A stretch of 64,000 nucleotides of DNA, from assembly GCF_003334315.1 (NCBI RefSeq), contig NZ_QOWR01000007.1; one strand, 5' to 3'. Positions within the stretch are counted from its first letter, which is position 1, and each line of letters starts with the position of its first letter. The notes under the pieces are model-generated. The model was not told the DNA's origin. It saw nothing but the letters and a program-made list of their open reading frames with translations, and did not search any database. A program made the translations under genes and the position numbers. Positions 13,571 through 18,406 of the stretch are shown one piece after another. This DNA is from Escherichia coli. GTDB taxonomy: Bacteria; Pseudomonadota; Gammaproteobacteria; Enterobacterales; Enterobacteriaceae.

Positions 13571-15108
13571 GCATCCTCCATCGGCGTAAACAGGCTACTT
13601 TCCATCAGGCGTGGATGCTTGATAATTGGACGGAAGGCCATATACGGCAGAATGTCGCGCTCAATCTCCACACTCGGTGCGATTTCAATTAATTCAACGC
13701 CTTCTGCCGTTAACTGGAATACTGCGCGTTCAGTGATATACAACACTTCCTGACCACTTTGCTGTGCGTAGGCGGCGCTAAAAGTGATTTTTTCCACCTG
13801 GGTAACCAGTTTAGGGATTTGACCTGACTGGGCGATATGCAAGCCATCTGGCGTTACATCAATCTTGCTACCTTTGGCGTCGAACGTGCCGCAGAACACC
13901 ACTTTACGGGCGTTTTGCGCAATTTCGAGAAAACCGCCGGGGCCAATGAGATTGCCATTGAGATGGGAGACGTTGACGTTACCGTACTGATCCATCTCTC
14001 CCATGCCGAGGAAGGTGATATCGATCCCTCCGCCACTGTAGAACTCAAATTGATCGAGTGATGGAATAATGGCATCGGCGTTGCGGGCACAACCAAACAG
14101 AGCATCATCAAGCATCATGCCGTTATGTACGCCTTGCTCGACGCTCAGCCATAAACTTTGGTAAGGAACGCCTTCGCGCAGCGCTACGCCTGGAATACCG
14201 CCAGGAATACCAAAGCCAAAGTTGGTTGAAGCGCCAGCCACCAGTTCGCGTGCTGCCCGACGGGCAATCAGGCGGCGCACCGGATGACTAACCAGTTCAA
14301 TAGCGTCGTTAGAACTCAGACGGCGATGTTGACCGCTAATGGTCAGGTCGTAACCGCCAAGATAGGTTTGCGGTTGTTCGCGGTGTTCAACGATGCCATC
14401 AACCAGAATGCCCGGTAATTTGACCCGGCGTGGTTCAATCGCGCCAGCTTCCAGCACATCGCGTACCTGTACGAACACTTTGCCGCCGCTGTTGTGTGCT
14501 GCCAGCGCCATGGAATAGCTATCCATATCAATCGCTTCTTCTTCAAGGCTGACGTTGCCTCGAGGATCGGCATAAGTGCCACGCAAAATCGCGTAATCCA
14601 CTTTGAAAGGGCGATAACGAAGTTTGGTTTCACCGTCGATTTCAATCAGTTCTACCAGGTCGTCGGTAGTGCATTCATTCGACTTACCGCCGCCATTGCG
14701 TGGATCAACAAACGATCCCAGCCCAACGTGGGTAAAAAGCCCCGGACGTCCGGCGCCGATCTCCCGTAGCAGTGCCTGAATCACGCCACCAGGAAAGCAG
14801 TAGGCTTCAATCGTGTTATTTTTTACCAGCGCCTGCATTTTGGGCGACCAGGTAAAGTGCCCGGCAATAATGCGTTTGAGCATCTCTGCGTGCGCAAAAC
14901 GATTAGTGCCTTTGCAGTCGCGATCGCCAATACCCAGCGAGTGGATTAGCGTCAGGTCGCGAGGGTGTCCGGTTTGCAGGAAACGCGCTTCAATAGCAGC
15001 CAGAATATGGTCGGCTTCTACCATACCGCCGCCGTTACCGCTAATAGCAATAGTCGCACCGTCCTGAATTTGCGCCGCCAGTGCCTCGGCGGTTGTTATC
15101 TTACGCAT
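13567..15108 (-). CDS. Family I acyl-CoA:acetate/3-ketoacid CoA-transferase (YdiF/propionate CoA-transferase-like, fused alpha-beta)
   Basis: 513-aa ORF MRKITTAEALAAQIQDGATIAISGNGGGM...; fused two-domain architecture and glycine-rich oxyanion regions typical of COG4670-type CoA-transferases. Confidence 0.8.
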   Translation of the reverse strand: MRKITTAEALAAQIQDGATIAISGNGGGMVEADHILAAIEARFLQTGHPRDLTLIHSLGIGDRDCKGTNRFAHAEMLKRIIAGHFTWSPKMQALVKNNTIEAYCFPGGVIQALLREIGAGRPGLFTHVGLGSFVDPRNGGGKSNECTTDDLVELIEIDGETKLRYRPFKVDYAILRGTYADPRGNVSLEEEAIDMDSYSMALAAHNSGGKVFVQVRDVLEAGAIEPRRVKLPGILVDGIVEHREQPQTYLGGYDLTISGQHRRLSSNDAIELVSHPVRRLIARRAARELVAGASTNFGFGIPGGIPGVALREGVPYQSLWLSVEQGVHNGMMLDDALFGCARNADAIIPSLDQFEFYSGGGIDITFLGMGEMDQYGNVNVSHLNGNLIGPGGFLEIAQNARKVVFCGTFDAKGSKIDVTPDGLHIAQSGQIPKLVTQVEKITFSAAYAQQSGQEVLYITERAVFQLTAEGVELIEIAPSVEIERDILPYMAFRPIIKHPRLMESSLFTPMEDA

Positions 15109-15117
15109 ACAATTTCC

Positions 15118-15900
15118 TTATTGATTATGGAAGCTCACGCTACTTTTTTCGGCAAAGGCGCGCGTCGCCTGCTGGCAATCCTGAGTGGCAGACATTAATC
15201 CGGCCAGTAGCTGGTGCGGGTAATCGGCATGTTTATTTTCCAGTGCCAGAATCAGTTGCTTAATATGCGCCAGTGCCACCGGACCGCATTTTTCCAGCTG
15301 CGCTAACTGGTTCGCCATCCAGCTTTCCACCTGTTCTTTTTCTACCACTTCATCAATTAAATTCGCCGCCTGGGCTTCCTGCGCCGTCAGGCGTTTACCC
15401 AGCATCAGCATCTGGCGACCGACCACCGGACCAACCTGATTAAGCACACGTTCAATGCCCATCCAGCCAGGCACCATGCCGAGCATCACTTCCGGGTTAG
15501 AGAATTTCGCGCCGGGGCGGGCAATACGAATATCGCAGCACAAGGCCAGTTCAATACCACCGCCGATGGTATGACCGTTGAGATTCGCAACGGTTAATTG
15601 GGGTAAGTTTCGCAGGCGATTAAAAACGTCATTACCGCGTTTAATCCATTTTCTGCCCATATCTAATGGCGAATAGGCCGACCACGATTTAATATCGCCA
15701 CCCGCACAAAAGAATTTATCGCCGGTTGCCGTTAATTCGACTAATCGTAATGTGGTGTCGTTTTCAATTTCATTTAAATAATGGTCGAGAGATTCGATCA
15801 TTTCTTCATTAATAGCATGACATTTATCTTCACGGTTCAATGTCAGGCGGCAAGAAGCCGCCGCTCTGCTGAACAGAACGGGTTGGTCACTCATGATCAT
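15118..15900 (-). CDS. Enoyl-CoA hydratase/isomerase (crotonase fold)
   Basis: 260-aa ORF with crotonase signatures (FFCAGGDI, GHTIGGGIELALCCD); true start may be the ATG 6 nt downstream (15894) judging by RBS spacing. Confidence 0.8.
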   Translation of the reverse strand: MIMSDQPVLFSRAAASCRLTLNREDKCHAINEEMIESLDHYLNEIENDTTLRLVELTATGDKFFCAGGDIKSWSAYSPLDMGRKWIKRGNDVFNRLRNLPQLTVANLNGHTIGGGIELALCCDIRIARPGAKFSNPEVMLGMVPGWMGIERVLNQVGPVVGRQMLMLGKRLTAQEAQAANLIDEVVEKEQVESWMANQLAQLEKCGPVALAHIKQLILALENKHADYPHQLLAGLMSATQDCQQATRAFAEKSSVSFHNQ

Positions 15901-15903
15901 TCC

Positions 15904-16746
15904 TTAACAATAATGCGCGATGCGATCGACGCTAATATCCAGCGTGCTGTTAATATCTTTCTGCCACCAGTAAGGCGAGAATATTTCCAGTTCTATAGCG
16001 CCATTAAATCCGGCGTTTTCAACCAGCCGACGAATTGACGGAATATTGATGACGCCATCTCCCGGCATTCCCCGGTCATTGACCAGATCGGTGGTCGGTA
16101 CTAACCAGTCGGAAACATGAAACGCGAGGATGCGTTTTCCGGCACGCAGGATCTGACTGGCGAGCTCCGGATCCCACCAGACGTGATAAACATCCACCGC
16201 CACGCCGAGGCCAAACTCACCATCGGGATCGAGTTCATCACACCAGTCCAGCGCCTGACGTAACGTGCACAGGCAAGAGCGGTCGGCAGCAGTCATCGGG
16301 TGCAGCGGCTCCAGCGCAATTGGCACGCCGACATCTTTCGAATGTGGCAGCAACTGGCGAATCCCTTGTTTTACTTGTTCCCGCGCTTCGTACAAATCTT
16401 TTGTTCCCTGCGGTAACCCGCCAACCACCTGCATATAACAGGCGGCGTTAAGCACCGCTGCGTCGTCCAGCGCCCGGCGGTTATCATCAATCGCCAGTTT
16501 GCGTTCCGCCTGTGTCGGCGCGGTGTAGTAAGTGCTACGGCACAAACCGGAAACGCTCATGTTACTGGCAGCAAGCTGGCGGGCGATTTGCTGGAGATCT
16601 TCACCCTGCAACTCCCTGCGCCAGGGGGCAATTGCGCCAATACCACGCGCGGCGCAGGCATCAATAATGGCGGGTAGAGGCGTTTTATAGCCCAGTGTTG
16701 CGGTATTGATACTGAATAAATCCGGGCGTTGTAACAGATCTCTCAT
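15904..16746 (-). CDS. Sugar-phosphate isomerase/epimerase-like TIM-barrel enzyme (xylose isomerase-like fold)
   Basis: 280-aa ORF; family assignment from overall similarity to the AP-endonuclease-2/xylose-isomerase TIM-barrel family (IolE, UlaE, dehydroshikimate dehydratase); function within that family is open. Confidence 0.7.
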   Translation of the reverse strand: MRDLLQRPDLFSINTATLGYKTPLPAIIDACAARGIGAIAPWRRELQGEDLQQIARQLAASNMSVSGLCRSTYYTAPTQAERKLAIDDNRRALDDAAVLNAACYMQVVGGLPQGTKDLYEAREQVKQGIRQLLPHSKDVGVPIALEPLHPMTAADRSCLCTLRQALDWCDELDPDGEFGLGVAVDVYHVWWDPELASQILRAGKRILAFHVSDWLVPTTDLVNDRGMPGDGVINIPSIRRLVENAGFNGAIELEIFSPYWWQKDINSTLDISVDRIAHYC

Positions 16747-16755
16747 GATTCAGCC

Positions 16756-17547
16756 TCAGAAGCGCGGCATACTTAAGCCGCCGTCGATGGCGACCGCCTG
16801 ACCACAGGTGTAAATCAGTTTACCTTCCGCCATCGCGCGGACGGTGGAAGCAATATCAGCCGGATAACCCCAACGTCCCCACGGCACCAGACCTTTGGCA
16901 ATCAGTTCGTCGTAATAAGCCGTTGCCGGAATAGTCATATCGGTTTTGATGAGACCAGGGCGCACTTCATAAACGCCAATTTGTTCATTACAAAGGCGAG
17001 CAGCAAACAGACGAGCAGCGGCAGAAACGGCGGTTTTGGCAATGGTGTATTCGCCGCGATTCATCGCCAGCATGATGGCGTTGATGGAACTGACGAAAAT
17101 AATCGAGCGGTGCGGCAGTTCCGCTTCCGGTTTCGGCTGTGCCAGTAAGCGCTTACTGAATGCCTGAGCAAGGAAGAACGGCGCGCGGGTGTTAATGGCA
17201 ATGTTTTGATCGAAGCTGTCTGGTTCGAGGTCGAGGAGGTCACCGCGTTTTTTCACTGAAATCCCCGCGTTATTGAGCAGGCAGTCCAGACGCCCCCACT
17301 GGTTTTGTGCCGCGTCGAGCATCTCTTCATGCAAGGAGAGATCGCCGACATCGGCAGGGAAGCAAATGACTTCCACACCTTCTGCCAGACATTCCTGTTG
17401 TGTGGCATGTAATTTTTCTACGCTGTCAGCATCGGGGCGATCGTTAATCAGCAGGTTAAATCCGCCACGAGCAAGCTCCAGCGCACAGCCCTTTCCAATA
17501 CCACGAGCGGCTCCGGTAATCACGGCAACAGGACGAGTGGATTTCAT
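16756..17547 (-). CDS. Short-chain dehydrogenase/reductase (SDR)
   Basis: 263-aa ORF; TGAARGIGKG cofactor motif near N-terminus and catalytic YTIAK (YxxxK); first gene of the island operon. Confidence 0.85.
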   Translation of the reverse strand: MKSTRPVAVITGAARGIGKGCALELARGGFNLLINDRPDADSVEKLHATQQECLAEGVEVICFPADVGDLSLHEEMLDAAQNQWGRLDCLLNNAGISVKKRGDLLDLEPDSFDQNIAINTRAPFFLAQAFSKRLLAQPKPEAELPHRSIIFVSSINAIMLAMNRGEYTIAKTAVSAAARLFAARLCNEQIGVYEVRPGLIKTDMTIPATAYYDELIAKGLVPWGRWGYPADIASTVRAMAEGKLIYTCGQAVAIDGGLSMPRF

Positions 17548-17734
17548 ACAATAACTCTCTTTTTTGAATATTGTTTTCTAAGTGACAATTAGCTTGCGAC
17601 GTGCCGCAAGAAAGATCAACCATCTGGTTGGTTGATATGCGATAGTGATCACAGGACATTTGATAACTTGATGAAAGTACAAGTTTTTATCCTTTTTACT
17701 GGAGCTTCTAATTAATCGGGTTAAGATAGTTATC
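17548..17734. promoter_or_regulatory. Divergent promoter/operator region between the island operon and its TetR regulator
   Basis: 187-bp AT-rich intergenic region between divergent genes; contains inverted repeats (see operator feature). Confidence 0.45.
17615..17636. promoter_or_regulatory. Candidate TetR-type operator (8-6-8 inverted repeat)
   Basis: ATCAACCA-tctggt-TGGTTGAT, perfect 8-bp arms read directly from sequence, 99 bp upstream of the TetR start; a second IR cttgcg-acgtgc-cgcaag lies at 17593-17610. Confidence 0.4.
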
Positions 17735-18406
17735 TTGAAGAGGTCGTGGGGAAGCGTTATGTATCTTGATACCAGCAACGTACAGAGCCTGAAGGAAAAG
17801 CTGCTGTTATGCGCGGTTAATGAATTTGCCGAATATGGTTATGAAGGGGCCAGGGTCGATAATATTGTTAAGGCTGCGGGGTGTAGTAAACAGACGGTTT
17901 ATCATCACTTTGGTAATAAAGAAAATTTATTTATTGAAGTACTGGAATATACCTGGAACGATATTCGACAAAAAGAAAAGGCCCTTGATTTCTCAGATCT
18001 TCCGCCACAAAAAGCTATTGAGAAAATTATTGATTTTACATGGGATTATTATATTGCTAACCCCTGGTTTTTAAAAATTGTGCATAGTGAAAATCAAAGT
18101 AAAGGTGTGCATTATGCAAAATCACAGCGTCTCTTAGAAATTAACCATGCGCACTTGCAGTTAATGGAATCCTTATTGGATGAAGGGAAGAAACACAATA
18201 TTTTTAAGCCAGATATCGACCCATTGCAGGTGAATATTAATATTGCTGCGCTTGGGGGATATTATTTGATCAACCAGCATACGCTTGGCCTGGTTTATCA
18301 TATCAGTATGGTTTCCCCCCAGGCACTGGAAGCCAGACGTAAGGTCATCAAAGAGACGCTCCTTAGCTGGCTTTTGGTTGATCCTTCATCTACTGCGCAC
18401 GAATAA
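17735..18406 (+). CDS. TetR/AcrR-family transcriptional regulator
   Basis: 223-aa ORF; N-terminal HTH ([28 protein letters not shown]); AT-rich by eye; alternative start at 17759; 3' end overlaps the ytfB stop by 17 bp. Confidence 0.8.

Follow-up and report, generated by a model that had tools for sequence, protein, structure and literature searches.

Several described regulatory systems resemble the locus analysed here, which lies in a 64-kb window of Escherichia coli DNA (the window being the whole stretch that was analysed). With TetR/tetO, AcrR (acrR-acrAB) and RutR (rut operon), the locus shares a regulator carrying a TetR_N domain, whose gene and likely target diverge from a gap of about 200 bp. 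Like these TetR-family systems, it combines a 22-bp dyad in the target promoter region with a local regulator and one site per genome. A second likeness is to class I CRP-dependent catabolic promoters that also have a specific repressor, such as those of the lac type and CytR/CRP at deoP2. The shared features are a CRP site that is occupied in ChIP-seq and would lie at -61.5, an adjoining site for a putative pathway-specific regulator, and a weak core promoter. The arrangement differs from lac in the placement of the specific site, which lies between CRP and the -10 element, over the predicted -35 element, and not downstream. It also differs from both lac and CytR in that the regulator, YtfA, belongs to the TetR family and not to the LacI family, and no protein-protein contact with CRP is implied. 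In kind, this is a textbook arrangement, with the layout of a local TetR-family repressor joined to a predicted class I CRP promoter. In the literature searched, no published description of the operator, its binding or the function of the operon was found, nor was a described box matching the CAACC..GTTGGTT dyad of this locus.

The acyl-CoA-sensing regulators FadR of Bacillus/Thermus and KstR2 gave the longest alignments with YtfA of all named families and solved structures. The operons regulated by FadR and KstR2 encode CoA transferase or hydratase-type enzymes, as does the operon described here, a likeness that points to a CoA thioester as a possible inducer of YtfA. YtfA is not a member of the FadR or KstR2 families, since its scores are nowhere near the family cut-offs (for FadR, 46 bits where 200 are required), its C-terminal domain is TetR_C_29, and boxes of the FadR/KstR2 type presumably differ from the dyad found here.

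The regulator, the operon and the palindrome between them

The regulator gene, ytfA (17759-18406, plus strand), encodes a full-length TetR-family protein of 215 aa, in which Pfam recognises a TetR_N helix-turn-helix domain (E = 3e-14) followed by TetR_C_29 (E = 1e-29). This gene name is used in two publications (PMC6790063 and PMC4287617). The ytfA of E. coli K-12 is described as a pseudogene only. On the opposite side of the gap, a six-gene operon of tightly spaced genes occupies the minus strand (10128-17547). It begins with a short-chain dehydrogenase gene, SDR (16756-17547, minus strand; annotated as '3-ketoacyl-ACP reductase', NF009386), and continues with genes for an AP_endonuc_2 TIM-barrel protein, an enoyl-CoA hydratase, a CoA transferase, a 690-aa FAD_binding_2 flavoprotein and an MFS transporter. 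The gene order in the window, that of an E. coli chromosome, is ula, rpsF-rplI, the island, ytfB, fklB and cycA. Regarding the function of the operon, NCBIfam gave generic names only, the PDB matches of the TIM-barrel protein led to uncharacterised sugar isomerases, the flavoprotein had no PDB match, and nothing relevant was found in the literature searched.

Further features were observed at the borders and in the interior of this region. The convergent genes ytfA (plus strand) and ytfB (minus strand) share 17 bp at their 3' ends (18390-18406); ytfA ends at 18406, and the stop-codon end of ytfB is at 18390. At the other end, a strong G+C-rich palindrome, AAACGCCGACCAGTGGTCGGCGTTT (10049-10073), lies between the convergent rplI and MFS genes and is probably a bidirectional terminator marking the end of the operon. 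Additionally, a perfect 16-bp palindrome, CAGTAAGCGCTTACTG (17143-17158), is located inside the SDR coding sequence.

The gap between the start of SDR (17547, minus strand) and the ATG of ytfA (17759, plus strand) measures 211 bp and holds the 22-bp dyad ATCAACCAtctggtTGGTTGAT (17615-17636), which we propose as the YtfA operator. A sequence-only reading of this DNA had described a perfect 8-6-8 palindrome at this position, placed between a divergent regulator and an operon. The letters confirm the repeat, which consists of ATCAACCA (17615-17622), the spacer tctggt (17623-17628) and TGGTTGAT (17629-17636), and the SDR-ytfA gap confirms its placement. A length of 22 bp falls within the range of about 15-30 bp for dyad-symmetric TetR-family operators, and the repeat occupies the short gap between a regulator gene and its divergent target, where such a site would be sought.

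By its sequence alone, the palindrome is only mildly unusual. Perfect repeats with arms of at least 8 and a spacer of 0-10 arose in 165 of 5000 dinucleotide shuffles of the gap (3.3%), and the 64-kb window, with nested cases included, has 33 of them, compared with 12.3 +/- 5.4 in shuffles. With a chance level of about 3%, the repeat by itself is weak evidence, and its significance comes from conservation. The exact dyad pattern, with up to 3 mismatches allowed, has a single occurrence in the window, and searches of the window for further sites (full dyad with at most 3 mismatches, core with at most 2) returned none beyond chance. Neither a dyad site nor a CRP box was found in the 92-bp gap before the MFS gene.

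The same reading had pointed to a second inverted repeat beside the dyad, at 17593-17610. This repeat is indeed present and perfect in the window, as a 6-6-6 arrangement of cttgcg (17593-17598), acgtgc and cgcaag (17605-17610), but it is specific to a lineage. Other E. coli lineages have AGGTAA or GGATAA in place of its right arm, E. whittamii has CGGAAA and ETEC H10407 has TGCAAG. Since this arm varies even among E. coli strains, we rejected the repeat as a functional element, and it is probably due to chance.

Conservation of the dyad within E. coli and across genera

A 501-bp query around the gap (17400-17900) was used to follow the island in 5426 complete E. coli genomes. It was present in 3142 of them (~58%), with 80-100% identity over the 501 bp, while the remaining 2284 gave no match to the queried region and thus lack at least the gap and its flanks. 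A 30-mer around the dyad was present as a single copy in each of 3143 genomes, a set that all but coincides with the genomes carrying the island, and in none of the remainder. These matches were perfect in 1493 genomes, 95-99% identical in 1316 and 90-95% identical in 334, and no close copy of the 30-mer was detected elsewhere in any of the 5426 genomes. Across divergent E. coli lineages the arms of the dyad are constant and the spacer carries a G/A polymorphism; in some lineages the arms extend to a 10-6-10 repeat.

The island (10128-17758 in the window) is repeatedly eroded by IS1, as observed at two other loci (L001, 6841-7538, and L022, 1748-2445). In strain E308, which is 100% identical to the window over the queried 501 bp (17400-17900), IS1 replaces the three genes that lie between the MFS gene and the TIM-barrel gene. 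In strain LR-24, IS1 adjoins a ytfA without its N-terminus, and the operon, the dyad and the CRP site are all gone.

Across genera, homologs of YtfA with 56-99% identity were located on their contigs, and 15 orthologous gaps were compared. The dyad was present in all 15, which represent Escherichia, Salmonella, Klebsiella, Lelliottia, Leminorella, Entomohabitans and metagenomes, with regulator identity down to 56%. The sequence-only reading had suggested looking for the same palindrome upstream of orthologous clusters, and these 15 loci are the outcome. All of them share an invariant core, CAACC (17617-21) and GTTGGTT (17627-33), and the flanks diverge. When 11 species-level sequences were compared in sliding windows of 22 bp, the mean pairwise identity reached 0.86 at the dyad (peak at 17614-17635) against 0.39 for the whole gap. 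The site is thus conserved together with the regulator at the 15 loci while the surrounding DNA diverges. The core is not fully symmetric, the right-hand GTTGGTT being better kept than its left partner, and the outer right arm varies, reading TGGTTGGT in Salmonella and TGGTTTAG in a metagenome locus. No other dyad conserved across the orthologs was found in the gap. In the same orthologs, the recognition-helix region of YtfA is almost invariant.

The position of the dyad relative to the operon is also fixed. Its start lies 64-79 nt from the SDR ATG in all 15 loci and 64-71 nt in 14 of them, in orthologous gaps that range from 204 to 423 bp in length. In Entomohabitans, a G+C-rich insert of about 210 bp on the ytfA side (L009, 5700-5960) parts ytfA from the dyad and CRP module, and the dyad remains with the operon. 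In one metagenome locus (L021), a second full copy of the motif is found over the predicted transcription start site (TSS), away from the -35 position.

The genes on both sides accompany the site. The regulator is divergent from the same operon in Salmonella, Lelliottia, Leminorella, a second Salmonella locus and three metagenome contigs; for K. spallanzanii and Entomohabitans, the comparison covered the SDR-ytfA gap. The same gene order was observed in Salmonella, Leminorella, Lelliottia and the metagenome loci, with six genes wherever the contig was long enough. In Leminorella, the regulator, the gap and the six-gene operon are found at a different chromosomal site, and four loci with regulators 56-67% identical to YtfA also keep the regulator-gap-operon module. 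A scan of genome contigs returned only 10 loci, of which the four most distant (two full-length matches of 30-35% identity and two partial ones) have neither the operon nor the motif; distant TetR_C_29 homologs at 30-35% identity thus occur without both.

The CRP site and the predicted promoter

Next to the dyad lies a CRP binding site, TGCGAtagtgaTCACA (17638-17653), whose letters, TGCGATAGTGATCACA, match 9 of the 10 positions of the TGTGA-N6-TCACA consensus. The site is kept at 8-10 of 10 in all orthologs, and its centre is 20 bp from that of the dyad in the window and 19-20 bp in the orthologs. For ETEC H10407, Haycocks et al. (2015; PMC4287617, Table 1) list a CRP ChIP-seq peak with the site TGTGATCACTATCGCA between ETEC_4557 and ytfA. 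TGTGATCACTATCGCA is the reverse complement of 17638-17653, and both the dyad and the CRP-site sequences of H10407 are identical to those of the window. CRP occupancy beside the dyad in vivo is therefore experimental, taken from the literature (PMC4287617) and matched here to the sequence. Elsewhere in the window, a CRP-like site, TGTGATGAACTTCAAA (8392-8407), is found upstream of rpsF, on the yjfY side, and an identical sequence is listed for the yjfY/rpsF CRP ChIP-seq peak of ETEC H10407 (PMC4287617).

A consensus sigma-70 scan of 17400-17900 found no promoter, so the promoter model is drawn entirely from conservation; an activator-dependent promoter would be expected to lack a strong consensus. 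The left arm of the dyad contributes a putative -35 element, TTGATC (17614-17619, minus strand), which is kept in 14 of the 15 orthologs and reads TTGTTC in the other. At a spacing of 17 bp, a putative weak -10 element, CAAGCT, follows (17591-17596, minus strand). This E. coli version matches the consensus at only 2 of 6 positions and is very weak; the orthologs have CATCTT, CATTTT, CATCGT or TAAGTT, and the A at position 2 and the T at position 6 are invariant in all 15. The operon transcript would then start near 17584, which would place the CRP centre at -61.5 (-60.5 in four loci), as in a class I promoter. The dyad would be centred at -41.5 and span about -31 to -52, covering the -35 element. 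A class II CRP layout, with GATCTT as the -10 element (17617 to 17612, minus strand), was considered and is disfavoured, as the T at position 6 is lost in Entomohabitans, Lelliottia and Leminorella, whereas the class I -10 element retains its A at position 2 and T at position 6 in 15 of 15 loci.

On the other side of the gap, a conserved block holds a candidate -10 element of a ytfA promoter, TAAGAT (17722-17727, plus strand), with TATGAT, TATAGT or TATAAT in the orthologs. The ATG follows about 31 nt downstream of it, and the dyad is about 100 bp away. Since the dyad is tied to the operon side and ytfA has its own -10-like block at this distance, autoregulation is not implied, and the locus gives no evident sign of the kind of autoregulation that characterises tetR and acrR.

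Other elements were observed around the CRP site. To its right, a block TTGATAAC..TGA (17660-17675), at about -76 to -91 of the predicted operon promoter, is partly conserved. Most Enterobacteriaceae orthologs retain its ATAAC and TGA, and the block might represent a second promoter element of ytfA or a site for another factor. Furthermore, GATC (Dam) sites flank the dyad at 17614-17617 and 17648-17651. The former belongs to the putative -35 element and left flank (GATCAACC) and is kept in 14 of the 15 loci, the latter lies within the CRP spacer, and some E. coli lineages have a third in the right arm (TGGTTGATCT).

Proposed regulation of the operon by YtfA

The palindrome is very probably a YtfA binding site. 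The sequence-only reading had named it as a candidate operator of the divergent TetR regulator, and this proposal gained support from several sides: the neighbouring gene encodes a TetR_N protein, the phylogenetic footprint over 15 modules peaks at the dyad, the distance to the operon is fixed, the site occurs once per genome and solely where the module exists, and there is no covariation of the RNA type. The reading had overlooked the neighbouring CRP site, the probable -35 element in the left arm and the tie of the dyad to the operon side. We further consider it likely that the dyad is an operator within the core of the CRP-dependent promoter from which the six-gene operon is transcribed leftwards, and that YtfA occludes this promoter until a ligand releases it. 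In this model, cAMP-CRP would bind at -61.5 (17638-17653), and YtfA, as one or two dimers at the dyad, would block the access of sigma region 4 and the alpha-CTD to the -35 element and the CRP-proximal DNA, so that the operon would be off even with CRP bound. A pathway substrate or CoA-thioester intermediate would bind the TetR_C_29 domain and release YtfA, which would allow CRP-activated transcription of the operon.

A more specific version of this mechanism is possible but doubtful. Here, YtfA would act as a TetR-family anti-activator between CRP (-61.5) and the -35 element, at 19-20 bp from the centre of the CRP site and on the face of the DNA that CRP also occupies, and would block the docking zone of the alpha-CTD and sigma region 4, a CytR-like logic in a TetR fold. 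Two dimers may sit on overlapping dyads, for which the tandem GGTT-GGTT of the right arm, the inner AACCA-tc-TGGTT and the outer 8-6-8 repeat may provide the sites.

Position does not fix the sign of regulation, since -41.5 is also the classic position of a class II activator. YtfA could accordingly be imagined as an activator, or a co-activator with CRP, bound as a dimer at -41.5, where two helical turns would separate it from CRP and place both proteins on one face of the DNA. The -41.5 centre and the CRP spacing of 19-20 bp agree with the geometry of class II or tandem activators, the core promoter is weak, and a few TetR-family proteins do activate, for example those of the LuxR/HapR type and FasR. 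However, most TetR-family regulators encoded divergently from a catabolic operon are ligand-released repressors. The dyad also contains a reasonable -35 element (TTGATC) that a bound protein would occlude, and the second motif copy of L021, over the predicted TSS, is in a repressor position. We regard activation as rather improbable, and repression by YtfA as the better account of the site.

The question of which protein binds the dyad was also considered. A different factor encoded elsewhere, such as a RutR-like TetR protein or another dimeric regulator, might occupy it, with YtfA binding at another place. This idea draws on the inner AACCAtcTGGTT of the window's allele, which resembles the core of the RutR box (which we take to be ACCA-NN-TGGT). 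However, most lineages and genera retain the outer dyad but have a disrupted inner, RutR-like one (TAGTT), and we rejected the RutR-box similarity because the inner dyad is not conserved. Moreover, the site moves with ytfA and the operon into other genomic contexts and into hosts known only from metagenomes, and the gap offers no other conserved dyad. A foreign factor at this site is thus quite improbable.

Conservation might instead reflect promoter and CRP-associated DNA only, namely the -35 element and the contact zone of the alpha-CTD, with the symmetry being incidental. The left arm does overlap the putative -35 element, and the conserved block lies between this element and a real CRP site. 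Yet no general promoter element corresponds to the invariant GTTGGTT (about -43 to -49), dyad symmetry is kept in 15 loci, and the second copy in L021 is complete and off the -35 position, all of which make this explanation very improbable. The reading of the palindrome as a minus-strand RNA hairpin, in the form of an intrinsic (Rho-independent) terminator or a leader structure, is the least credible of all, for although a terminator scan flags a stem of 8 bp on the minus strand (17636 to 17615, with CTTTCTTG after it) and the RNA fold of 17650 to 17600 reaches -12 kcal/mol (z = -2.7), the stem has only 3 G-C pairs and an interrupted T-run, no upstream gene exists on that strand to terminate because ytfA is transcribed away, 4 of the 8 pairs never vary and the outer ones change mostly by breaking, covariation does not exceed that of shuffles (136 of 500), Rfam gave no match (permissive E-values yielded noise only), and the dyad would lie upstream of the TSS in the predicted layout.

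With YtfA as the probable repressor at the dyad, the analysis describes an intact ytfA together with a CoA-dependent catabolic operon in about 58% of complete E. coli genomes, in Salmonella and in other enterobacteria. The operator and promoter model, with the dyad at -41.5, CRP at -61.5 and the invariant core, would provide handles on the role of the operon, through reporter fusions and a search for the inducer by the release of YtfA. The locus may represent a new ligand-responsive TetR switch.
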